A stretch of 64,000 nucleotides of DNA from Solirubrobacterales bacterium (GCA_038199185.1 JBBPZE010000060.1:5066-69065), one strand, 5' to 3'. Positions 1,984-16,093 are shown, counted from the first letter of the stretch. Numbers and translations: made by a program. Notes: a model not told the origin generated them from the sequence alone.

Positions 1984-4659
1984 ATGACGCTGCGAGAGAT
2001 CGAAGAGCGCGTTGCGGCGATCGAGCCGCGTCCAGGAGTCGAGTACCTGGGGGACCTACTGCTCGCCTACGGATTACCGCGGGCCTCGGTCTCTCGGCTC
2101 ATGTCGGGCACGTACGACAAGGCCGACACCGCCGACGAGCGGCTTTGGAAGGACAAGGTCTACTTTCGCTACATCGAGGGCCCCGACGAAGCCCTCTACG
2201 AGGCCATCGATGGCGCGCGCGGCGACGAGCGCGTGATCAAGCATCGGCCGAGGTTCCTGATCGTCAAGAACGATGGACGTCTGCTGGCCCGGGATCAAAA
2301 GGACGGCCAGACGCGCGACATCGAGGTCGGAGAACTCGCGTCGAACGTGACCTTCTTCGGCGCCTGGGCGGGGTTCGAGAAGACCCAGCTCGAGAACCTC
2401 AACTACGCCGATCGCAAGGCCGCGGAGAGGATGGCCAAGCTCTACGACGAGGTCATCAGGCACAACAGCATCGAGACCGATGACGCCATCCACGACCTGA
2501 ACGTCTTCTTCTCGCGACTCCTGTTCTGCTTCTTCGCTGAGGACACCGGGGTGTTCGAAACTGGTTCGTTCACCAACGCGCTCGGCTCCTACACACGGGA
2601 GTCGGGCGAGGACACACACAGCTTCCTCGACCAACTCTTCGAGGTGCTCGACACGGAACCCGCCGAACGCGCAGGACTCCCCGAGCACCTGGGCGCCTTC
2701 GGCTACGTCAACGGCAACCTCTTCGAGCGCCGCTGTCCGGCACCGCGTTTCTCGGCCAAAGCGCGCGCGGTCATCCTCGAGTGTGGGACGCTCGACTGGT
2801 CACAGATCAACCCCGACATCTTCGGGTCGATGATCCAAGCGGTCGTACATCCGGGCCAGCGGGCCGGCCTCGGGATGCATTACACGTCGGTCGAGAACAT
2901 CATGAAGGTGATCCGCCCGCTGTTCCTCGACGAGCTCGAGGCGTCCTTCGAGGCGGCCGACACGGTCAAGAAACTCGATGCGCTGCTGGCGCGGATCGCG
3001 GCGATCCAGGTCTTCGACCCGGCATCAGGCTCGGGGAACTTCCTGGTGATCGCGTACAAGGAGCTGCGCCGGCTCGAGCACCAGATCCTGCAGCGGACGA
3101 CCGAGCTCGAACCGCACCGCGCGGCGCTGTTCACCGACTCCCGGCTGCGGCTGGACAACTTCTTCGGAATCGAGATCGACGACTTCGCCCACGAGATTGC
3201 GATCCTCTCCCTTTGGTTGGCCAAGCACCAGATGAACGTCGCCTTCGAAGAGCTGTTCGGTGCGGAGATCCCGCTGATCCCGCTGCGGGAGGCGGGCAAC
3301 GTCGTGTGCGCGAACGCGACGCGGATCGAATGGACGGAGGTCTGTGATCCGGTCGGAGAGACCTATGTGCTGGGGAACCCGCCGTATGCCGGTTCGTCGA
3401 TGCAGAGCCCAGAGCAGAAAGCGGAGTTCGTGGACTACTTCGGCACCGCCAGGTATCCAAAGAACCTCGATTACGTCTCCCTCTGGTTCTTCAAGGGGGC
3501 CGAGTTCGTGAACCAAGGGCCCGACGTAGCGGTGGCGTTCGTCGCTACGAACTCGATCAGCCAGGGAGATCATGTAGGGCTGATGTGGCCGCGCGTGTTC
3601 GCGTCGGGCGGACAGATCTCCTTCGCGCACCAGTCATTCCGCTGGTCGAACCAGGCCCGGAGAAACGCCGGAGTGACTTGCGTGATCGTCGGACTGATCG
3701 CCAGAGGGCAACCCGTCAAGAACGTGCTCTACCTCGACGGCGTCCGCCGTGTCGTCCACGAGATCAGCCCGTACCTGACCGTGGGTGCGCGCGAGCTGAT
3801 CGTCCATTCCCGCCGACTTCCTCCGCCGGGGCTACCGCCGATGGTGTTCGGGAGCAAGCCCACCGACGGAGGGTTTCTGAACATGCTGCGTCAGGAGCGC
3901 GACGAACTCCTCGCCGCGGCGCCAGACGCCGCCCGTTTCATCCGGCGGTACGTGGGCGCTGCTGAATTGCTGAACGGTAAGGAACGCTATTGCTTGTGGA
4001 TCGAGGATCACGAAGCGGACGTTGCGGCAGGCATCCCATTGATCAGACGTCGGCTCGATCAGGTCGCCGCGGCGCGAAGGCGCGGGTCGACGACTGCCCA
4101 GGCCATGGCCGACAGGCCCTACCGCTTCCTGCAGCGAGCGCACAAGGCGACGAGCGCGATCGTTGTGCCCGAGGTCACCTCCGAGCGGCGCGACTACGTG
4201 CCACTCGACTTTGTCGGCCCCGAAACCGTCATCTCGAACAAGGCGTTCGCGATCTATGACGGTGACCCATGGCTCTTCGGCCTACTTCATTCGCGCATGC
4301 ACATGACCTGGGTCAGGGCGGTAGGCGGACGCATGAAGACAGACATCAGCTATTCCTCGATCCTCGTTTACAACACGTTCCCCGTGCCCGAGATCCCAGA
4401 GGATCAGCGCGCAACACTCACCCACGCGGCCGTGGCAGTGCTTGGGGCCCGCGAGCAGTTCTCTGGTCAGACCCTCGCCGAGCTCTACGACCCGGACAAG
4501 ATGCCCCCGGTCCTGCGCTCGGCCCATCGAAATCTCGACGACGCCGTCGACGCGCTCTTCCGCTCCAAGCCGTTCGAGTCCGACGCTGCACGGCTTGAGC
4601 TCCTGTTCGAAATGTACGAGTCGGCAACCCGCGACGAGCCGGCGACCGCCCATGCCTGA
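1984..4659 (+). CDS. MmeI-family (type IIG/IIL-like) N6-adenine DNA methyltransferase with target-recognition domain. The MmeI N-terminal D-x12-ExK nuclease motif was not found.
   Basis: 891 aa. Motifs read: RLLFCFFAEDTGVF, LDWSQINPDIFGSMIQ, GMHYTSVENIMKVIRPLFLDEL, VFDPASGSGNFLV (SAM motif I), LGNPPYAGS (motif IV), VATNSISQGDHV, LVYNTFPVP, LAELYDPDKMP. These are colinear with MmeI as I recall it. Confidence 0.85.
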   Translation: MTLREIEERVAAIEPRPGVEYLGDLLLAYGLPRASVSRLMSGTYDKADTADERLWKDKVYFRYIEGPDEALYEAIDGARGDERVIKHRPRFLIVKNDGRLLARDQKDGQTRDIEVGELASNVTFFGAWAGFEKTQLENLNYADRKAAERMAKLYDEVIRHNSIETDDAIHDLNVFFSRLLFCFFAEDTGVFETGSFTNALGSYTRESGEDTHSFLDQLFEVLDTEPAERAGLPEHLGAFGYVNGNLFERRCPAPRFSAKARAVILECGTLDWSQINPDIFGSMIQAVVHPGQRAGLGMHYTSVENIMKVIRPLFLDELEASFEAADTVKKLDALLARIAAIQVFDPASGSGNFLVIAYKELRRLEHQILQRTTELEPHRAALFTDSRLRLDNFFGIEIDDFAHEIAILSLWLAKHQMNVAFEELFGAEIPLIPLREAGNVVCANATRIEWTEVCDPVGETYVLGNPPYAGSSMQSPEQKAEFVDYFGTARYPKNLDYVSLWFFKGAEFVNQGPDVAVAFVATNSISQGDHVGLMWPRVFASGGQISFAHQSFRWSNQARRNAGVTCVIVGLIARGQPVKNVLYLDGVRRVVHEISPYLTVGARELIVHSRRLPPPGLPPMVFGSKPTDGGFLNMLRQERDELLAAAPDAARFIRRYVGAAELLNGKERYCLWIEDHEADVAAGIPLIRRRLDQVAAARRRGSTTAQAMADRPYRFLQRAHKATSAIVVPEVTSERRDYVPLDFVGPETVISNKAFAIYDGDPWLFGLLHSRMHMTWVRAVGGRMKTDISYSSILVYNTFPVPEIPEDQRATLTHAAVAVLGAREQFSGQTLAELYDPDKMPPVLRSAHRNLDDAVDALFRSKPFESDAARLELLFEMYESATRDEPATAHA

Positions 4660-6568
4660 CCTCGTCCGTGTCGAGTACGGCCAGGACGGTCGCAGCACGG
4701 CTACCGACGCGCTCGGCATGCGCGAGATGCAGACGCGCGCGTTCGCTGCACGTGACAGCCAATACCTGCTGATCAAGGCGCCGCCGGCCTCGGGCAAGTC
4801 GCGCGCGCTGATGTTCATCGCGCTCGACAAGCTGTTCCACCAAGAGCTGAAGAAGGTGATCGTCGCCGTCCCCGAACGCTCGATCGGCGCCTCGTTTGCT
4901 CCTACGCCGCTCACCGAGTCCGGCTTCTTTGCCAACTGGGAGATCTCGGACGAGAACAACCTGTGCACGCCCGGCGGGGACGCGAGCAAGTTCGCGGCGG
5001 TGCAGCGCTTCCTCGCAGGGCCCGACGCGGTGCTCGTCTGCACCCACGCGACGCTCCGCTTCGCCCACGACGCGATCGACGAGCGCCTGCTCGACGACAC
5101 CGTTCTGGCCATCGACGAGTTCCACCACGTCTCGGCGTCGGACGACAGCCGGCTCGGCGAGCTGCTGCGGTCGGTGATCCGCAACACCTCGGCGCACGTC
5201 GTCGCGATGACCGGCTCCTACTTCCGCGGCGACGCCGTTCCTGTCCTCGACGCCGAAGACGAGGCCCGCTTCACCAAGGTCACCTACAACTACTACGACC
5301 AGCTCAACGGCTACACGCACATGCGGTCGTTGGGGATCGGCTACCACTTCTATCAGGGCCGCTACACCGAGGCGATCGGGGAGATCCTCGACACCGACAA
5401 GAAGACGATCCTCCACATCCCGAGCGTCCAGTCGGGCGAGTCGACAAAGGACAAGCTGCGCGAGGTCGACACGATCCTCGACTCGATCGGCGTGTACGAC
5501 GGTCAGGACCCAACGACCGGCGTTATCCGCGTCCGTCGACCAGACGGCAAGCTGCTCAAGGTCGCCGACCTGGTCAACGACGACCCGGCCCAACGGCCAA
5601 AGATCGTCGAGTACCTGCGCACGATGCGCGAGCTCGACGACATGGACCTCATCATCGCGCTCGGGATGGCCAAGGAAGGCTTTGACTGGCCCTGGTGCGA
5701 GCACGCGCTCACCGTGGGCTACCGCGGCTCGTTGACGGAGATCATCCAGATCATCGGGCGCTGTACGCGTGACTCACCCAACAAGACGCACTCGCAGTTC
5801 ACGAACCTCATCGCCCAGCCAGACGCGGGCGACGAGGCGGTCAAGGTCGCCGTCAACAACATGCTCAAGGCCGTCACCGCCTCGTTGCTGATGGAGCAGG
5901 TGATGGCGCCAAACTTCAACTTCAAGACCAAGCGCTCGTCCGATGACATCTCAGGGCTCGGCGAGCTCAAGATCGGCGGCTTCAAGGAGCCGTCAAGCGC
6001 CCGCGTCACTCAGATCGTCGAGTCTGACCTCAACGACCTCAAGGCCCAGATCCTGCAGGACCCGACGATGCTCAAGGCGATGCCAGGGAACATCGACCCT
6101 GAAGTGATGAACAAGGTCCTGATCCCTCAGATCATCCGCGCGCGCTACCCGGACATCTCTGAGGCCGAGGTCGAGGAGGTCCGCCAGCACGTGGTCACGG
6201 ACTCAGTCGTCAAGAACGGCGAGGTCAAGGACGTCGGTGACAAGCGATTCGTTCTGATGGCGGGACGCTTCGTCAACATCGACGACCTGCACATCGACCT
6301 GATTGACACGGTCAATCCCTTCCAGAAGGCCTTCGAGGTGCTGTCGAAGTCGGTGACCAAGCAGGTGCTGAGGCTGATCCAGGACGCGATCGAGACGACG
6401 CGTGTCGACATGAGCGAAGACGAGGCGCTCCTGCTATGGCCGAAGCTTCAGGCGTTCGTGAGAACGAACGGAGATCGGCCTGACGTTCGCTCGGCTGATC
6501 CTCTCGAGCAACGGCTGGCCGGAGCCCTGCTGCTGCTTCAGAAGCAGAGGCGCGAGCAGAACCTGTGA
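4652..6568 (+). CDS. SF2 DEAD/DEAH-type helicase/translocase (restriction-subunit-like) with a ~260-aa helical C-terminal extension.
   Basis: Motif I IKAPPASGKSRAL, motif II AIDEFHH, motif III AMTGSYFRGD, motif VI QIIGRCTRD. The ATG at 4652 overlaps the methyltransferase stop (ATGCCTGA). The track start at 4442 lies inside the upstream gene. Confidence 0.85.
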   Translation: MPDLVRVEYGQDGRSTATDALGMREMQTRAFAARDSQYLLIKAPPASGKSRALMFIALDKLFHQELKKVIVAVPERSIGASFAPTPLTESGFFANWEISDENNLCTPGGDASKFAAVQRFLAGPDAVLVCTHATLRFAHDAIDERLLDDTVLAIDEFHHVSASDDSRLGELLRSVIRNTSAHVVAMTGSYFRGDAVPVLDAEDEARFTKVTYNYYDQLNGYTHMRSLGIGYHFYQGRYTEAIGEILDTDKKTILHIPSVQSGESTKDKLREVDTILDSIGVYDGQDPTTGVIRVRRPDGKLLKVADLVNDDPAQRPKIVEYLRTMRELDDMDLIIALGMAKEGFDWPWCEHALTVGYRGSLTEIIQIIGRCTRDSPNKTHSQFTNLIAQPDAGDEAVKVAVNNMLKAVTASLLMEQVMAPNFNFKTKRSSDDISGLGELKIGGFKEPSSARVTQIVESDLNDLKAQILQDPTMLKAMPGNIDPEVMNKVLIPQIIRARYPDISEAEVEEVRQHVVTDSVVKNGEVKDVGDKRFVLMAGRFVNIDDLHIDLIDTVNPFQKAFEVLSKSVTKQVLRLIQDAIETTRVDMSEDEALLLWPKLQAFVRTNGDRPDVRSADPLEQRLAGALLLLQKQRREQNL

Positions 6569-7737
6569 CGATCGACGCCGACACGCTCAGGGCGATGATC
6601 GCTGCGGACGAGCTCGGTCTGCTGGAGCTTCCGGTGAAGGTGCGGGCGATCACCACCGACGAGCGCCTGGCGGCGAACTTCGACGAGATCACCGAGTTCG
6701 TGCGTGCGCACGGCCGCGAGCCGGCGCCAGGCAGCTCCGACGTGGCCGAGATCAAGCTCCACGCCCGTCTCCAGGCGCTACGCGACCACGACGAGGCGCG
6801 CGAGGCGCTCGCCGACCGCGACGACTTCTCCCTGTTGGTCGAGCCCGAGGCGCCCGCCTCCGTTGCGCAGGCCGCGGCTGACGACCCCCTCGGGCTGCTC
6901 GATGCCGGAGCCGAAGACGTCTTCACTCTGCGCCACGTGCCGAAGGCACCCGCGGCACAGCCCGAGCGGGTGGCGCAGCGCAAGCCCTGCGCGGACTTCG
7001 AGCTCTTCGAGCCCTTGTTCAAGCGCTGTCATGTCGAGCTGCGCGCGGGCACCCGGAAGGTCGTCCGATTTCGCAACGAGCAGGAGATCCGAGAGAACGC
7101 GTTCTACGTGCACCGCGGCGTGCTGACCTATGTCGCAGAAGAGGGCGAACGTCGGATCGAGCACGGGCGCCCCAATGCTCGGCTGCGCTGCATCTTCGAG
7201 AACGGCACCGAGGCCGACCTGCTCCTGCGCTCCTTCGCCAGCCAGCTCTACCGCTTCGGCAGGCAGGTGACCGATCCGGACGAGGTGACCAACGACGCGG
7301 TGGAGATGCAGCTCGACGGACGGACCGGCTACGTCTACGTACTTCGCTCGCTGTCCGAGGACCAAGCGGTCCAGGCGATCCCCGACCTATACAAGATCGG
7401 GTTCACGACGTCGGACGTCGCGAAGCGGACGAGCGGTGCCCGCCGGCACGCGACGTTCCTGGGCGCAGCCGTCGAGGAGGTCTCCCTCTATGAGATGCCG
7501 GCAGCGATGGCTCGTGGGGTGGAGACCCTGCTGCACCGCTTCTTCGCGCTGGCGGGGATCGACGCGTGGTTCGAGCACGCCGGCGTCTCAACGGCAGAGG
7601 TCAGGGAGTGGTTCTCGGTTCCCCTGGGCGCGATCGATCAGGCGATCGACCTCCTGCAGGCCGAATCAATCGAGAACTTCGAGTACGACCCGGAGACGCG
7701 GACCATCCAGCTCAGCGGAGCTCGCGGCGGATCCTGA
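6565..7737 (+). CDS. T5orf172 / MUG113-type GIY-YIG-superfamily domain protein (putative nuclease) with an uncharacterised ~250-aa N-terminal region.
   Basis: The C-terminus reads GYVYVLRSLSEDQAVQAIPDLYKIGFTTSDVAKRTS...LLHRFF...REWFSVP. The GTG start overlaps the helicase stop (GTGA, 6565-6568). Confidence 0.7.
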   Translation: MTIDADTLRAMIAADELGLLELPVKVRAITTDERLAANFDEITEFVRAHGREPAPGSSDVAEIKLHARLQALRDHDEAREALADRDDFSLLVEPEAPASVAQAAADDPLGLLDAGAEDVFTLRHVPKAPAAQPERVAQRKPCADFELFEPLFKRCHVELRAGTRKVVRFRNEQEIRENAFYVHRGVLTYVAEEGERRIEHGRPNARLRCIFENGTEADLLLRSFASQLYRFGRQVTDPDEVTNDAVEMQLDGRTGYVYVLRSLSEDQAVQAIPDLYKIGFTTSDVAKRTSGARRHATFLGAAVEEVSLYEMPAAMARGVETLLHRFFALAGIDAWFEHAGVSTAEVREWFSVPLGAIDQAIDLLQAESIENFEYDPETRTIQLSGARGGS

Positions 7738-8015: not shown

Positions 8016-9854
8016 ATGGTTCAGCTGAAGAGCGGGCTGATCGTGCCGAGCTACCTGGCGAGCCTCGGCCAGGAGCGGGCAGGTCCAGGGCTTCATCTCC
8101 CGCCCGCACGCATTCCCGACGACTCGCTGCTCGTGGTCGGCCAGCCACCAAGTGATCTCGACGCCTTCTTCGTAGCTCCTGACCCGGAAGCGCTCGGACA
8201 GCCGAACCCGAGCCTAGAAGCCATCTGTCGAACGCTGAGCGTGGTGCCCGTCGAGCCAGCCATGTTCGGTCTGGCCGGTATCGCCGCGGCGACGTGGCAT
8301 GCCGGCACCGACCAGGCCAAGCACCTCAAGCTGGCCGAGGAGATCTTCGTCGGGCGCCCGGTTCTGGATCTGCTCCGGGAGTTCGTCAAGGAGGACCGCA
8401 ACCACGTCCTTTTCAACGAGCAGCACCTGACAATCCTGACCCGTCTACTGCTCATCCACGGTGCCGAGGGTGATGCCAAGGTCGACATGACTGGTGAGCA
8501 GGTCAATGCGCTGCTGACGGCGATGCTCGCGGTCGGCGGCTTGACTGCCAGACACGCCGACCCGGAGGCCAGCGGCGAGAAGCCGATGGGGTGGGTCCCG
8601 TGGATGGTGCGTTCGGGCCTCTACTTCGATCGATCGAACTTGGGCAGCGATCAGGCACGCGCTCGTGCGTTGTTCGTCGATGTGGCGGCGGGCGCCGATC
8701 CGTCAGGAGCGCACTGGTGCGACGTCGGCGCCTGGGCGGCCGAGGATCTGGCGCCGGTCGAGCGCCAGTTCGGCTACGGCTTCTCCATGGGCGCGTTTTC
8801 GAAGGCTCTCTTCCCCGACGTCGAGACGACGGACCGCTTCGTGGGGATCGTCGCCGATGGCCTGCTCGCCGACAACATGGGCGCCGCCCAGGTCGAGCGG
8901 CTGGTGAGCGCGAGCAGCTCGACGCGCCAGGAGTACATCGATGCATTCGCCGAAAACGACGACGTCGACCACCTTCTTTGGGACCGGACGCCGTTCGAGC
9001 GCAGGCCGTTCTTCCGTGTCGGTGACGGGCGGCTCCTGTTGCTCAGCCCTCGCTTCCTCCACAGCTGGATGGGCGAGGGGATCTACTACCGCCTGCTCGA
9101 CGCCGCCATGAGCCGCCCCGATCCTCGACGGCCAGAGCGCAAGGCCACCCTGAGGTTCACCCAGTTCCAGGGTGAACTCATGGAGAGCTATCTCCAGCGG
9201 CTCACCGAGCGGTCCCATGCCGAACAGCTCCGCGCCGGCATCGTCGACATCAACGGCGAGCAGCAGTATGTCGGCGAGCAGGGCAGCGAACGGAAGAGCC
9301 CGGACCTTACCCTGGGATTTGCAACGGACCTCGTGGCGATCGAGATCACCGGCGGACGACCGTCTCGCCGCACCCGGGTTCTGTCAGACCCTTCGCTGAT
9401 CGAGAAGGAACTTGACGACCGTGTGATCGGCAAGCTGCAAGAGCTCGACAGGGCGCTCGTCGATGTCCTTGACGGCACTGCCCGCGTCCCCGATCTCCGG
9501 CTGAATCTTGTCGAGCGTGTGTGGCCCGTCTTGATCGTCCCGGCGACGATCGTGCAGAGCGACCACGTCTGGGGCTACATCGAGGGAAAGGCACCAGATC
9601 TCTTCACGCACCACCCGGCGCTGCAGCCCCCGACGCTGTTCTCCATCGAAGACTTCGAACGTGCGTTGGCCGCCGTGGAGGCTGGTGCCGGGCTGCACGC
9701 GGTTCTCGGCACTCGCCTGGGTTCCGTGTATCGGCGGATGCCGCCCTCTCATTTCTTCGAAAGACACTTCCAGAGCGATTCGCGGCCGGCCTACCTCGAA
9801 GAACAGCTGGCGCTGGTCGCGGACGAGGCCAAGGCGGCACTGTCGCTGCTCTGA
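8016..9854 (+). CDS. Hypothetical 612-aa protein with no family recognised. The start is uncertain: ATG 8016, or downstream GTG/ATG up to about 8262.
   Basis: Long ORF with coding-like composition from about 8016 onward. The upstream part of the track ORF (7566-8015) is Arg-rich and overlaps the preceding gene. A weak PD-(D/E)xK-like string KSPDLTLGFATDLVAIEITGG lies at about nt 9296-9355. Confidence 0.6.
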   Translation: MVQLKSGLIVPSYLASLGQERAGPGLHLPPARIPDDSLLVVGQPPSDLDAFFVAPDPEALGQPNPSLEAICRTLSVVPVEPAMFGLAGIAAATWHAGTDQAKHLKLAEEIFVGRPVLDLLREFVKEDRNHVLFNEQHLTILTRLLLIHGAEGDAKVDMTGEQVNALLTAMLAVGGLTARHADPEASGEKPMGWVPWMVRSGLYFDRSNLGSDQARARALFVDVAAGADPSGAHWCDVGAWAAEDLAPVERQFGYGFSMGAFSKALFPDVETTDRFVGIVADGLLADNMGAAQVERLVSASSSTRQEYIDAFAENDDVDHLLWDRTPFERRPFFRVGDGRLLLLSPRFLHSWMGEGIYYRLLDAAMSRPDPRRPERKATLRFTQFQGELMESYLQRLTERSHAEQLRAGIVDINGEQQYVGEQGSERKSPDLTLGFATDLVAIEITGGRPSRRTRVLSDPSLIEKELDDRVIGKLQELDRALVDVLDGTARVPDLRLNLVERVWPVLIVPATIVQSDHVWGYIEGKAPDLFTHHPALQPPTLFSIEDFERALAAVEAGAGLHAVLGTRLGSVYRRMPPSHFFERHFQSDSRPAYLEEQLALVADEAKAALSLL

Positions 9855-10292
9855 ACGTGTCACCGGCACGCGAGCGGTCGCCAGTCGATGCAGCCGGGGC
9901 AGCTCGGACGGCCTCCGATTCCGCCACCGCGAACGCCCGTGGCGGATCCCGGATGTTGAGCCCATGAGCGAAGGCTCGGTACGCAGGATCCAGCGACGCG
10001 TGTGGTCAGGCACGCCGTTGCGGAGGTTGCGCGCATAGGAGGTGCTGCTGTTCGCGGCCAGCGAGACCGGGCTCACGCAGATCGACGACGTGATTGCTCT
10101 CGTCGCGGCTCGACCCAGGGTGGCTTCCGGCGGCGCTCGCGCAGTTCGGGCTGCCCTCGCGAGGTGACATCCTGGAGGTGCCCCCAGGGCAAGGCCACGT
10201 CGAGCGAAACACAGGGGCCTACCTCTCATCACCAGCGCAACGACGACGCGACCATGAGCCGCAACCCGGCCAATCCCGAAGGAGAGAGCCCC

Positions 10293-13200
10293 ATGACCGG
10301 CTTGGGCGAGTACGCAGCGGGCAAGAGCATCGGCTGGGGCATCAAGTTGATGACCTACGGGGTCCGGGAGCTCCTCAAGCGCGACGCGCTCGGCCGCCTG
10401 TTGCTAATGCTGCATTCCGAGTTCGGCGAGCGCACACAGCTCGGGCGAGACGTGTTCGACAGCTGGCGCGCACGGCCGGACCTGGAGGCGGCGCTCTGCG
10501 CCGTGCTCGCCGGGCAGGCGCCGGAAGCCGCGTTCAAGAGTTCACTGACCGCGCTGATCTCCGAGCGTCTCGTTCGCACAGACCCGCCGGACCGGGCGGC
10601 ACTGGCGGCCGAGATCGCAGACGCGGTGTTCGAGGCCGCTCCAGCCGCCGCCGACGGCGGCAACCAAGCCCTGGCCATGATGCTCGTCCGCATCGAGCAG
10701 GGGCAGGGCAGCCTCATGGAAGCCATCGAGAAGGCCTCGCTGTCGGGGCCGCCGGCTCCCACCGACGGGGGCCCGGCCGACGGCCCGAACCTCGCCCAGG
10801 CCCTGGTTGTCGGGCCGGTGAAGGCGGTCGGGGCCGTCGACGCGGTCGCTGATGCCGAACGACTTGCCGAGGGAGGCGACCAGCTCGCCGCAGGGCGCGC
10901 GCTGATCGATGTTTCCCGTCGCCTCGCCGAGCGCGACCTGACCTATGCTGCCGAGAACCTCCGTGAGCGCGCCGCCGCCCACCTCGCCGCCGGCGGCGCG
11001 ATCGACGACGCCGCCGCCGTGCTGATGGAGATCGCGTTGGCCCGCATCGACCGGGGCGCATCACGCTCCGGCGCGATGCTCGTCCACGCGGTACGTGATC
11101 TTCTCGATCCGAGTGAGGTCTGGCTGGCGGACGGGATCGCGGCCCGGGCTGGCTGGGCCGAACAGGGCGAGGCGGCTGTCGAGGCACTTTCCGCAGCCGC
11201 GCTGGCCGCAACGTCCGCTGGCCGCGACGACTCCACGTACTGGGTCGCTGCGCATGTCGAGCTCCTTGCGGTCGACGAGCGCTGGCCGGATGTCGTCGAG
11301 GCCGCAGGCGCCGTGGCCGACGCCGACCCAGAGGAAGGGCCGGTCCTCGCTGTCATCCTCGACGTGTTCGACGCTCGCGAGGCGATCGACGGTGCCGATT
11401 CGACCGAGAAACGCTGGTTGGGTCTGTTGCGCTGGGCCGACGCGGAAGCGCCGCCGCGGGCACAGGCCGTCGTCTGGCAGCGCCGGGGCACCGTCCTTGC
11501 TCGGCGGGAGAAGGTGGCGCAGGCGTCCGACGCTTTCCGGCGCGCGATGGCGGCGTGGGCTGGCATCCCGGGCCATGAGGAGCAGGCAGCTGACGCGTTC
11601 TTCTGCCTCCAGGCGACCGCCATCATCAACGCCAAGCCGATTCCCGACATGGAGTTGCGAGCCCTCGCCTGGACCGTTCGCGGTGCCGCCGGGACGCCCG
11701 TAGCCGTCACCGACCGGCTCGACCGCGACGCGATGGCCCGCCGCTTGAACAAGCAGCTTCCGGACGCCCGGGTCGGCTACATGGAGGCCTACCTGATCAA
11801 CCGCAGGGTCGGGAGCCTTCAGGGGTGCCTGGAGACTTCGGAGCGCTTGGCCGAGCTCTACCAGCACGCGGGCGAGCTCGGGGAGGCGCTGACCTTTTTC
11901 ATCCGTGCCGGCAAGGGCAAGGAGGCCGCCCAGGTCGCCGCCCAGATGCCGGGCGATGCGGTCACCGCACGGCTCAGCGTCAGCGGCCCCCGGTGGGAGC
12001 GCGCGGCGGCCCTGCATGTGATCGCGGAGTGCGGCCGGGGCCTGCCGTCGGAGTTCGTCGCCTTGATGACGCAGAGCCTGCTCGACGAGGCCGCGGGTGA
12101 GCCTGACGCGATGGTGGCGCCCCAGCCGGTGTCGGCGGCGCGGCGCGCGCTGGCCACGGTGTTCCTGTCGGTGCCAGAGGAGATGCGGGACGAGGTTTTC
12201 GGACGGCTCGTCGAGTACCTGACCTGCGGTCTGTTTGATCTCATGCACCACAGCGCCCGCGCACTGGTCCTGGCGACGCGCGCCGGAATCGTTGACGCCC
12301 GGCCTCAGCTGGTTGCCCGTTTCATCGAGGATCCGTACAACAGCTCGATCAGTTGGGCGTGGCTGGCCCGCGAGGCCGAGAAGCACGAGTCGGTTCGCGA
12401 CGCACTGCTCGCCGCGGCCCGCGACGGCAAGGACGCGATGCTCGAACCCCTTGCTGCGGCGGGCCTCATCGGCAACGGCGAGCTGCAGGACCGCGTCGAT
12501 GCGGTGACGATTGCGACGTCGCAGGTGGTGACTGTCGAGCGCACGATCGACGAGGAGACCGGCAAGACGAACATCTCGGCGGGCTTCGGGTTCTCGTTCG
12601 AGGGCCCCGCGGTCGTCGCCCGAGGCGCGAGCGCTGAGCCGCGCGCGGCATTGGTCGCCCGAATGCTCGAAGTCCTCACCAGCACCGAAGAGCCGGAGCT
12701 CAATCGTTCGGGCGCTGCGGGCGCACTGTTCAACATCGCCCCGTCGCTGGAGCTGCAGCAGGCCCAGGAAGTCGCTGCGGCCATCACGCCGCTTGCGCTC
12801 GGCGAGTACGAGCGCTCGCAGCTGGACGTCGAGCAGAACCACCCGCTGTCGCGAGTACAGATCAGCTTCGGGGCGCCCAACCAGCTGCGGGTCTCGGCGA
12901 TCGGAACGCTCGCCCAGCTCGTGTCCAATCACTCCGAGCTCGACGTCGAGCCTCTGCGGGAGGCGGTCACCGGCGCTGTTCGCACGAACGTGGGCTCGGT
13001 GGTCGGCGCCGCGTTCGACGCCGCCGCCCGGCTGCCGCTGGTCGACTTCGGCATCGACCCCGAGGACGGGTTCTTCCACCCGGACTCGGCCGTGCGGATC
13101 CACGCGCTCGTCGCGTGGGCGGCACGCAGCGAGGGACTGCCCGCGGACGGGTTGGTCGAGCGACTCGCCACCGACGCCGACATCAATGTGCGGCTGCAGC

Positions 13201-13337
13201 TGACCGCCATGGCCGGGCACGCCGGGGAGGCTGGCGCGGCGCTGCTCGAACGTCTCGCCCGGGGCGATGCCGATGCGTTCGTGCGTGCCAAGTCGGTGTT
13301 CTGGCTGCGCCAAGGCGCAGATCACGCGGCCGAATGA
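10293..13337 (+). CDS. Large (1014-aa) Ala/Leu-rich alpha-helical repeat protein (TPR/HEAT-like). Function unknown.
   Basis: The ATG at 10293 is preceded by gaaggagag (SD) 8 nt upstream. C-terminal HEAT-like units are DSAVRIHALVAWAARS, DADINVRLQLTAMAGH and DADAFVRAKSVFWL. The track start at 10002 adds an Arg-rich, non-coding-like leader. Confidence 0.7.
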   Translation: MTGLGEYAAGKSIGWGIKLMTYGVRELLKRDALGRLLLMLHSEFGERTQLGRDVFDSWRARPDLEAALCAVLAGQAPEAAFKSSLTALISERLVRTDPPDRAALAAEIADAVFEAAPAAADGGNQALAMMLVRIEQGQGSLMEAIEKASLSGPPAPTDGGPADGPNLAQALVVGPVKAVGAVDAVADAERLAEGGDQLAAGRALIDVSRRLAERDLTYAAENLRERAAAHLAAGGAIDDAAAVLMEIALARIDRGASRSGAMLVHAVRDLLDPSEVWLADGIAARAGWAEQGEAAVEALSAAALAATSAGRDDSTYWVAAHVELLAVDERWPDVVEAAGAVADADPEEGPVLAVILDVFDAREAIDGADSTEKRWLGLLRWADAEAPPRAQAVVWQRRGTVLARREKVAQASDAFRRAMAAWAGIPGHEEQAADAFFCLQATAIINAKPIPDMELRALAWTVRGAAGTPVAVTDRLDRDAMARRLNKQLPDARVGYMEAYLINRRVGSLQGCLETSERLAELYQHAGELGEALTFFIRAGKGKEAAQVAAQMPGDAVTARLSVSGPRWERAAALHVIAECGRGLPSEFVALMTQSLLDEAAGEPDAMVAPQPVSAARRALATVFLSVPEEMRDEVFGRLVEYLTCGLFDLMHHSARALVLATRAGIVDARPQLVARFIEDPYNSSISWAWLAREAEKHESVRDALLAAARDGKDAMLEPLAAAGLIGNGELQDRVDAVTIATSQVVTVERTIDEETGKTNISAGFGFSFEGPAVVARGASAEPRAALVARMLEVLTSTEEPELNRSGAAGALFNIAPSLELQQAQEVAAAITPLALGEYERSQLDVEQNHPLSRVQISFGAPNQLRVSAIGTLAQLVSNHSELDVEPLREAVTGAVRTNVGSVVGAAFDAAARLPLVDFGIDPEDGFFHPDSAVRIHALVAWAARSEGLPADGLVERLATDADINVRLQLTAMAGHAGEAGAALLERLARGDADAFVRAKSVFWLRQGADHAAE

Positions 13338-14930: not shown

Positions 14931-14936
14931 GTGGGA

Positions 14937-15010
14937 CGGGAGCGACGGGACTCGAACCCGCGACCTCCGGCGTGACAGGCCGGCGCTCTAACCGACTGAG
15001 CTACGCCCCC
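14937..15010 (-). tRNA. tRNA-Asp (anticodon GUC).
   Basis: The reverse complement is GGGGGCGTAGCTCAGTCGGTTAGAGCGCCGGCCTGTCACGCCGGAGGTCGCGGGTTCGAGTCCCGTCGCTCCCG. It folds as a cloverleaf with anticodon loop CTGTCAC. Confidence 0.95.
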
Positions 15011-15118
15011 GTAGGCGACGGCGCACAGTAAAGCAACATCACCGCGCGCAACTCCCCAGGAGCGCCAGGGTTCCAGGAGCCGGAAACGGCACCCGACCTC
15101 TATCAAGGGAGCAGGACC

Positions 15119-16093
15119 ATGAAGGCCACACGCAGAGCGCCGGCAGCGGTCATGACCGCACTGGCAGGACTGGCGGCCACGGCCGCCATCGCCACCGCCG
15201 CGACGATCACCGGCACGCCGGCCGCCGAACGTCTCGTGGGCACGCCTAACGTGGACAACATCGACGCGCTGGCCGGTGACGACCGCGTGCTCGCCAGGGC
15301 CGGCGATGACGTGGTCACGCTCGGCGCGGGCGACGACCGCGCCTTCGGAGGCCTCGGGATCGACACGATCTCAGGCGACGCGGGCGACGACACCATCGCG
15401 GGCGGCGCAGGCAATGACGTGCTCGCCGGCGGTCCCGGCCACGACCGGCTGTTCGGCGGAGCCGGAGACGACACGATCAAGGGCCTGCAGGGCGGCGACC
15501 TCATCGTGGGCAACGCGGGCAACGACACGCTCGAGGGCGACGTGCCCGGTGCAGGCGACCTCGTGAGCCGCGACCGGATCTTCGGGGGCCGGGGCGACGA
15601 CACCGTCATCGGTGGCGACGGCCGTGACCGGCTGCACGGTGGTAGTGGCAACGACACCATGCGAGGCAACGCCGGACGCGACTTCATGTCCGGCGGCGCC
15701 GGCAACGACACGCAGTACGGGGGCGCCGGCAACGACCGCATCTTCGCCAACCAGGGCGTCGACACGACCATGGGCGGCGACGGCAACGACGACCTGTGGG
15801 CGCTGTCGCAGAAGGACGTCGCCCCGGGACCCGGGATCGACACGGTCGGCGACACGCTGATCGGGGAGGCGGGCAATGACACCTTCCACACCCGTGACGG
15901 TGAGATCGACCGCGTCGACTGCGGCGCCGGCAACGACGTCGCGCTGCTCGACAACGTCGACGTGATCATCGACGCGACCACCGAGAACCCCAACGGCTCG
16001 TGCGAGACGGTCATCCGCCGGGCGCCCTCGCCGGCCGACGCGCAGACCGAGGACGCGACGCAGACCCAGCCCGGCGACACCGCGCACGCCTGA
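15119..16093 (+). CDS. Secreted calcium-binding RTX/hemolysin-type repeat protein.
   Basis: Signal-like N-terminus MKATRRAPAAVMTALAGLAATAAIATA, followed by many GGxGxD nonapeptides (GGAGNDVLAGGPGHDRLFGGAGDDT and others). Confidence 0.85.
   Translation: MKATRRAPAAVMTALAGLAATAAIATAATITGTPAAERLVGTPNVDNIDALAGDDRVLARAGDDVVTLGAGDDRAFGGLGIDTISGDAGDDTIAGGAGNDVLAGGPGHDRLFGGAGDDTIKGLQGGDLIVGNAGNDTLEGDVPGAGDLVSRDRIFGGRGDDTVIGGDGRDRLHGGSGNDTMRGNAGRDFMSGGAGNDTQYGGAGNDRIFANQGVDTTMGGDGNDDLWALSQKDVAPGPGIDTVGDTLIGEAGNDTFHTRDGEIDRVDCGAGNDVALLDNVDVIIDATTENPNGSCETVIRRAPSPADAQTEDATQTQPGDTAHA

Follow-up and report, generated by a model that had tools for sequence, protein, structure and literature searches.

What kind of system is formed by three overlapping genes that together encode a methyltransferase related to the restriction enzyme MmeI, a superfamily 2 (SF2) helicase and a protein ending in a GIY-YIG-type domain? 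The genes lie at 1984–7737 in a 64,000-nucleotide stretch of DNA from a Solirubrobacterales bacterium (GCA_038199185.1, JBBPZE010000060.1:5066-69065), referred to here as the window. A reading made from the sequence alone (the sequence-only reading) had taken them for a Type ISP restriction enzyme split into three genes, an ATP-driven cassette with its parts on separate subunits, and had left open whether the architecture was already catalogued. Judged by protein identity and gene order, the trio adds a new and intact example to the DnmA(YeeA)-YeeB-YeeC family, the architecture of which was published in 2009. This intact member is probably a three-subunit, MmeI-related, ATP-dependent defence operon of the restriction-modification (R-M) type located on an acquired island.

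All three genes are on the plus strand. Gene 1 (1984–4659; 891 residues) encodes a DnmA/YeeA-type, MmeI-family gamma-class N6-adenine methyltransferase (MTase) fused to a target recognition domain (TRD), as assigned from its Pfam MmeI domains, its match to MmeI and its identity to DnmA. Gene 2 (4652–6568; 638 residues from the ATG at 4652) encodes a YeeB-type SF2 helicase/translocase, recognized by its motifs and identity to YeeB, and gene 3 (6565–7737; 390 residues, with a GTG start) encodes a YeeC-type protein with a T5orf172/GIY-YIG C-terminus, recognized by Pfam and by identity to YeeC. The start and stop codons overlap at both junctions as the sequence-only reading described, by eight bases between genes 1 and 2 (ATGCCTGA at 4652–4659) and by four between genes 2 and 3 (GTGA at 6565–6568), and the three genes are translationally coupled. 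The start codons chosen fit the lengths and N-termini of the homologues. Promoter, terminator and Rfam scans of the region returned nothing except tRNAs.

This arrangement has been described before. Morgan et al. (2009; PMC2731913) divided MmeI homologues into two sets, one of which keeps the nuclease motif; members of the second set lack it and "invariably" have two flanking genes, one for a YeeB-like DEAD helicase and one for a YeeC-like protein with GIY-YIG motifs. These authors proposed a Type I-like multi-subunit restriction enzyme, and speculated that specificity and protective modification come from the MmeI-like subunit, the N-terminal domain of which interacts with the separate helicase and endonuclease subunits. 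The window encodes an MmeI-homologous MTase-TRD protein lacking D-x9-ExK, with a YeeB-like helicase directly downstream and then a YeeC-like protein, all on the same strand. The reference trio in Bacillus subtilis (DnmA, P0372, DNMA_BACSU/YeeA; locus L093) was identified by gene names and by its yeeD, yezG and yeeF neighbours, and BLASTP gives 44% identity over the full length of gene 1 to DnmA (E=0), 62% identity over 599 residues of gene 2 to YeeB (E=0), and 39% identity of gene 3 to YeeC (E 1e-79). The trio is thus the named dnmA(yeeA)-yeeB-yeeC cluster, and a prior assignment to a named system, which the sequence-only reading had itself listed as a refutation, exists in substance.

Two members of the family have been studied genetically. 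Nye et al. (2020; PMC7261158) established GACGAG as the sequence methylated by YeeA, which they renamed DnmA, and found no restriction of transformation; DnmA alone marks one strand of this asymmetric site. Fernandez et al. (2023; PMC9973331) reported that the dnmA-yeeB-yeeC order is conserved, that YeeC contains a T5orf172 domain, and that the genes provide no phage defence in B. subtilis. The other closest known system is yeeAB of Vibrio crassostreae 7F1_18, and Piel et al. (2021; bioRxiv 10.1101/2021.05.05.442762) found that yeeAB give V. crassostreae resistance to one group of phages. A literature search for a more recent name, or for biochemical work on the trio, found nothing beyond these three reports and Morgan et al. 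(2009).

The window and B. subtilis trios share the same proteins in the same order and strand, the loss of the PD-ExK site, the T5orf172 C-terminus and a location in acquired DNA. They differ in spacing, with gaps of 11 and 112 bp in B. subtilis and overlapping genes in the window, and in their TRD residues, from which a different recognition site is predicted (see below). They also differ in the helicase, which is full length (638 residues) in the window, whereas B. subtilis yeeB ends about 40 codons early. The B. subtilis gene (599 residues) terminates at an in-frame stop (about position 11449, within L093:11380-11620), beyond which the same frame goes on as 'EFYRSTGRRPDSKSEDPLERRMGEAVLYMQELRRKRENGK', corresponding to the C-terminal consensus of the family. 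A nonsense mutation therefore appears to have deprived this allele of about 40 residues at the C-terminus, and this truncation may explain the reported absence of restriction or defence in B. subtilis.

Gene 1 is colinear with MmeI, as had been claimed, through the helical spacer, MTase, TRD and C-terminus. Pfam identifies all five MmeI domains in the order in which they occur in MmeI: MmeI_N (residues 1–157, E 5e-16), MmeI_hel (residues 170–247), MmeI_Mtase (residues 324–575, 2953–3708, E 3e-93), MmeI_TRD (residues 603–804, 3790–4395, E 7e-76) and MmeI_C (residues 806–882). In a phmmer search of the sequences in the PDB it matches MmeI (5hr4) with E 2.5e-174, with an aligned span of residues 73–883 only. 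MTase motif I (FDPASGSGNFL, residues 344–354, 3013–3045) and motif IV (NPPY, residues 465–468, 3376–3387) are intact, and N6-methyladenine (m6A) on one strand of an asymmetric site is predicted. F344, D345, N465 and P466 are invariant among 59 gene 1 homologues and the other MTase motif positions nearly so, and Y468 aligns by BLASTP with Y465 of DnmA, the catalytic residue (PMC7261158).

The N-terminal domain (1984–2454) is the homologue of the MmeI nuclease domain and lacks D-x9-ExK. To compare it with active-site-bearing relatives, the N-termini of four stand-alone MmeI-like plasmid genes (L008-L011) were aligned with the trio-type proteins. These enzymes keep D..ExK (e.g. 'GYIDLFWPGVMLAEHKS'), whereas the window protein has 'DERLWKDKVYFRYIEG' at this place (2134–2181); all four (n=4) lack a helicase neighbour and conserved partner genes. 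In a manual, W-anchored register of 59 trio-type sequences the position of the metal-binding glutamate is occupied by K in 41 and by R in nine, the first acidic position mostly remains E, and the position of the catalytic lysine varies; the corresponding residues in the window are E52...R62-Y-I64. In the MAFFT columns the ExK residues fall two to three positions later, with E opposite Y63 and K opposite E65, and the two registers concur that gene 1 contains no ExK. The N-terminus is consequently free of a D-x(n)-ExK signature, as the sequence-only reading had it, and its proviso that this region might prove to be an intact PD-ExK nuclease does not apply. Because Pfam MmeI_N still recognizes the domain, it is best described from these alignments as a homologous, catalytically degenerate relic rather than an unrelated sequence.

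MmeI itself cuts DNA via its own N-terminal nuclease (D70-x9-E80-x-K82) and has no motor; the window protein has lost the nuclease site, and its gene is coupled to genes for a separate helicase and a GIY-YIG-type protein. The two proteins otherwise share the colinear spacer, gamma-class MTase, TRD and C-terminal domain and the same two-residue recognition code, and by analogy with MmeI one-strand m6A modification of an asymmetric site would be expected for gene 1.

Gene 2 contains the complete set of helicase motifs that had been reported for it: the Walker A motif PPASGKS (residues 44–50, 4781–4801), DEFHH (motif II, residues 155–159, 5114–5128), TGS (motif III, residues 187–189, within 5207–5221) and QIIGRCTR (motif VI, residues 366–373, 5747–5770). 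Their key residues do not vary among 83 homologues, and the Pfam DEAD, ResIII and Helicase_C matches are weak. Pfam and PADLOC scans detected no nuclease domain in gene 2. Helicase relatives number more than 8000 in a collection of metagenome protein clusters, the top 120 of which have 76–94% identity and are nearly all 637–643 residues in length. Homologues of gene 1 average 45% identity to the window protein, those of gene 2 66% and those of gene 3 37%, and the helicase retains 59–77% identity (L012-L091 compared with the window) across Actinomycetota, Bacteroidota, Bacillota, Pseudomonadota, Planctomycetota, Chlamydiota, the Candidate Phyla Radiation (CPR) and other phyla. Such high conservation points to a motor under strong constraint and to extensive horizontal transfer.

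Gene 3 ends in a T5orf172-type domain, as had been noted (residues 255–363, 7327–7653; Pfam T5orf172 E 1.3e-7), and the same C-terminus matches Pfam MUG113 (E 6.6e-8); we take both families to belong to the GIY-YIG superfamily, to which they are generally assigned. Y258, K277, G279, R288, E320 and E348-W-F are invariant among 73 homologues and H324 is present in 72 of them, residues of the kind that would be expected of a GIY-YIG active site. An AlphaFold2 model (predicted local distance difference test score, pLDDT, of 80) shows a helical N-terminal domain, a disordered linker, a small beta-barrel (~166–235) and the C-terminal alpha/beta T5orf172 domain. In plasmids of Proteus (L005:7936-9141) and Acinetobacter (L092:6489-7695) the YeeC homologue is annotated as two open reading frames (ORFs) of ~95 and ~304 residues, labelled 'hypothetical' and 'GIY-YIG nuclease family protein', which could reflect either a frameshift or a true split.

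The three genes recur together in distantly related genomes. In a scan of one genome per species at least 580 helicase relatives were found, and the best 80 loci were examined; these span Actinomycetota, Bacteroidota, Bacillota, Pseudomonadota, Planctomycetota, Chlamydiota, Campylobacterota, CPR and other phyla. By tblastn, a gene 3 homologue follows gene 2 immediately in all 77 loci with room for one, and a gene 1 homologue is present upstream on the same strand in 70 of the 80. Where gene 1 is lacking, a contig end usually interrupts the locus; only L081 lacks it despite 6 kb of sequence upstream. The trio is also present on Bacillus, Proteus and E. coli plasmids, annotated as 'DNA methyltransferase / DEAD/DEAH box helicase / GIY-YIG nuclease family protein', and metagenome contigs encoding helicase relatives carry the same trio with unrelated flanks. 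The co-occurrence on which the sequence-only reading had staked its proposal is thus found, with order and strand kept; the association is not due to chance, and the three genes form one conserved unit.

The code worked out for MmeI by Morgan and Luyten (2009; PMC2731914) allows the recognition site of gene 1 to be predicted. The TRD specificity residues E730/N752, K753/S789 and K785/D787 map to MmeI E751/N773, A774/R810 and E806/R808, and the predicted site is 5′-NNCCAG-3′, with m6A at the adenine. Applied to the equivalent residues of DnmA (S/N, L/R, K/D) the code yields NNCGAG, which fits GACGAG at positions 3–6 (CGAG), DnmA being the single case in which transfer of the code to trio-type proteins is validated. 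Among 59 gene 1-type proteins there are 37 distinct six-residue specificity combinations, and 58 of the 59 have position-6 determinants of K/R+D or E+R, in keeping with the MmeI code, which appears to carry over to the trio subfamily. If it does, methylation motifs could be predicted from sequence alone, here NNCCAG. Given the variety of these combinations and the lower identity of gene 1 relative to the helicase, target recognition appears to be under diversifying pressure, as would be expected of a restriction system.

A working model can be put together from these components. Gene 1 would recognize an asymmetric 6–7 bp site, predicted to be 5′-NNCCAG-3′, and place m6A on one strand. Wherever a site is unmodified, the relic N-terminal domain of gene 1 would recruit or license the motor (YeeB) and the nuclease (YeeC); these would hydrolyse ATP, travel along the DNA and cut it, with YeeC presumably responsible for cutting. 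Since methylation would mark only one strand, self-cleavage after replication is probably avoided in the manner of Type ISP and Type III enzymes, by making cleavage depend on a pair of unmodified sites in a set orientation. It is possible, if not quite probable, that the trio represents a distinct class of ATP-dependent restriction enzyme in which a relic nuclease domain docks or licenses, the SF2 motor stands alone, the nuclease is a separate GIY-YIG-superfamily protein, and a site-orientation rule applies. Were this so, the stoichiometry of the subunits, their mode of communication (translocation or sliding) and the geometry of cleavage could all be new.

Several observations weigh against an active restriction system of this sort. 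For no member of the family has biochemistry shown cleavage of DNA, translocation or the formation of a complex, and deletion of dnmA, yeeB or yeeC in B. subtilis leaves transformation and phage sensitivity unchanged (PMC7261158, PMC9973331). T5orf172 was first described as a DNA-binding module (PMC9973331). A fold search of the PDB with the gene 3 model found no significant neighbour (best E 9e-3), and a gene 3 profile matched none of the PDB sequences; the sub-significant fold matches are to SH3/Tudor-like barrels (eIF5A, EF-P) and involve the middle domain only. With neither a fold nor a profile match in the PDB, the putative nuclease activity of gene 3 rests on its Pfam family and conserved residues. 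The AlphaFold model of gene 2 is poor (pLDDT 61). The NNCCAG prediction depends on a code that was derived from nuclease-bearing MmeI enzymes and checked on one trio-type protein only.

The Type ISP enzymes LlaGI and LlaBIII carry an Mrr-family nuclease, SF2 ATPase, coupler, MTase and TRD in one chain; the MTase is of the gamma class, the site is asymmetric and one strand is methylated (PMC4666363). The trio has the same set of functions and, by prediction, an asymmetric site, and LlaBIII and LlaGI are among the fold matches of the helicase model, all of which would suit literal fission of such an enzyme with a swap of the nuclease. However, the trio has three ORFs instead of one polypeptide and its nuclease candidate is of the T5orf172/GIY-YIG type rather than Mrr; in this respect the expectation of a different nuclease fold is borne out. 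Among PDB sequences gene 1 matches MmeI only, with LlaBIII and LlaGI (4xqk, 5ffj) not matched by phmmer at E<=0.001. Single-sequence and profile searches of the PDB with gene 2 returned nothing useful, including no Type ISP or HsdR chain. A placement of the helicase near Type ISP and HsdR by fold was considered and rejected, as the model is poor and its matches are generic to SF2, with Pol theta, MDA5, Hjm, HamB, HsdR, LlaBIII and LlaGI about equal and the Type ISP scores no better than those of unrelated helicases. The gene order MTase-helicase-nuclease is also unlike the Type ISP domain order nuclease-helicase-MTase. Neither gene 1 nor gene 2 has a detectable sequence relationship to Type ISP beyond general folds. 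Both this lack of a match and the relic MmeI nuclease domain speak for an MmeI-like fusion protein as the ancestor, one that gained a motor and a nuclease as separate partners. Descent by fission of a Type ISP enzyme, to take the sequence-only reading literally, is very improbable, and Type ISP is a functional analogy only. A plain MmeI-like Type IIL enzyme beside an unrelated helicase and GIY-YIG gene fares worse still: the PADLOC 'Type IIG REase-MTase' model does fit gene 1 end to end (938 bits), but gene 1 has no PD-ExK site in the same polypeptide and does not stand alone, its ORF overlapping the next as that does the third, and synteny in about 80 loci of many phyla stands against the four ExK-keeping plasmid genes without a helicase neighbour. 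The synteny and motif data refute it, and we regard it as next to impossible.

Two other alternatives concern what the system does. The trio could be an orphan or epigenetic MTase with two decaying partners (a 'relic of an RM system', the phrase used for B. subtilis DnmA), such that only gene 1 matters, via gene expression. B. subtilis shows no restriction or defence phenotype, DnmA methylation regulates promoters (PMC9973331, PMC7261158), and its yeeB is nonsense-truncated. Against this, the three ORFs of the window trio are all full length and overlapping and keep every catalytic residue invariant across 59–83 homologues; the helicase is the best conserved of the three, which fits poorly with decay; the locus lies on a probable acquired island beside another probable defence gene; and Vibrio yeeAB are active (bioRxiv 10.1101/2021.05.05.442762). 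We consider the orphan MTase unlikely. Exclusion in the style of BREX, in which YeeA marks self and YeeB and YeeC block replication of unmarked DNA without cutting it, with T5orf172 binding DNA, would agree with the original description of that domain and with the finding that the DnmA motif is not avoided in phage genomes (PMC9973331). It would also agree with the MTase core that gene 1 shares with PglX and DrmMI, to both of which it has partial, weak PADLOC and NCBIfam matches, and with the absence of a structural match of gene 3 to solved GIY-YIG nucleases. However, gene 3 has Y258, K277-I-G279, R288, E320 and E348 invariant, and H324 in 72 of 73 homologues, as in a GIY-YIG active site, and its two Pfam families presumably belong to that superfamily. 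No BREX or DISARM partners (PglZ/BrxC, DrmA/B/C) are present in the five ORFs scanned. Exclusion without cutting thus seems rather unlikely, though it deserves slightly more weight than the orphan MTase. The ATP-driven restriction cassette with its parts on separate polypeptides that the sequence-only reading envisaged accordingly stands as one unit and as the most likely functional reading, although it had already been published (PMC2731913).

Of the classical multi-subunit systems, Type I R-M enzymes (EcoKI, EcoR124I) resemble the trio in being built of several subunits, with a motor-nuclease presumed to depend on the MTase/recognition component, and in the passenger genes embedded in loci related to the trio (RhuM, Fic/DOC, AlbA_2-HATPase_c_4, YhcG/DUF1016). 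They differ in that the trio has recognition and methylation on one protein with no separate HsdS, a motor and a nuclease that are separate from each other, a putative nuclease that is GIY-YIG-type rather than PD-ExK, and a predicted site that is asymmetric and continuous. With the TRD fused to the MTase and no HsdS- or HsdR-like neighbour, the locus is not a Type I system.

The sequence-only reading also suggested a search with defence-finding tools. The PADLOC models would call gene 1 a 'Type IIG REase-MTase' and give the trio no system name; neither PADLOC nor NCBIfam has a model specific for gene 2 or gene 3, so that automatic annotation would yield a Type IIG enzyme of one gene and overlook the partners. 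The family is very widespread, yet the defence model sets see only this one-gene 'Type IIG'. Since the best-studied member, that of B. subtilis, has a truncated helicase, intact members such as the window trio should be better suited to reconstitution. As a discovery the locus is mostly ordinary, the architecture having been known since 2009 and the B. subtilis and Vibrio members studied genetically.

Variation among the related loci is concentrated between genes 1 and 2. In 28 of the 70 loci the MTase and helicase genes are separated by 0.6–5.8 kb, mostly occupied by passenger genes on the same strand, whereas gene 3 always follows gene 2 directly. The passengers include RhuM (L013, L031, L040, L064, L072, L074, L085), Schlafen AlbA_2+HATPase_c_4 proteins (L035, L057, L068, L071, L087), Fic/DOC-HTH, YhcG/DUF1016, HTH_3+ImmA/IrrE and a DEAD helicase, with further passengers in L055, L086, L024, L071 and others. 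The passenger types are the same hitchhikers that occur inside Type I R-M operons. Many Acinetobacter plasmids contain only fragments of the trio. In the A. baumannii plasmid NZ_CP018144.1 (L092:5079-7695) a blaOXA-23 transposon bounded by ISAba1 carries a YeeB-type helicase truncated by ISAba1, which has 64% identity to residues 150–614 of the window gene 2 and is followed by the two-ORF YeeC homologue; the literature labels these genes 'YeeB, YeeC' in Tn2009/Tn6206.

The window trio lies within a segment of distinct composition. From ~1750 to ~14900 the GC content is 62–69% with lower GC at third codon positions (GC3), compared with 71% for the window, and the low-GC stretch ends at a tRNA-Asp gene (14934–15011, minus strand) with its 3′ end facing the stretch. 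This segment is probably an integrated, horizontally acquired island. No repeat of the tRNA-Asp 3′ end, as an att-like mark of the far end, was found within the window, and the segment looks like a defence island with its other end outside the window. The island probably carries a further, separate defence gene of the ApeA-like kind: a 484-residue ORF on the plus strand at 13115–14569 matches Pfam ApeA_NTD1 (E 1.6e-7) and PADLOC PDC-S58 (E 2.2e-17). Two large plus-strand ORFs at 8034–9854 (~606 residues) and 10257–13337 (~1026 residues) have no confident family, giving a weak match to GapS1 (E 8e-4) and sub-threshold TPR matches. These two ORFs and the ApeA-like gene were considered as extra components of the system and rejected, being present at none of 91 other loci. 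Beyond the tRNA-Asp gene GC3 is high, and an RTX calcium-binding repeat protein (15032–16093) and a cytochrome P450 (16109–17563) encoded there appear to be products of ordinary host genes.

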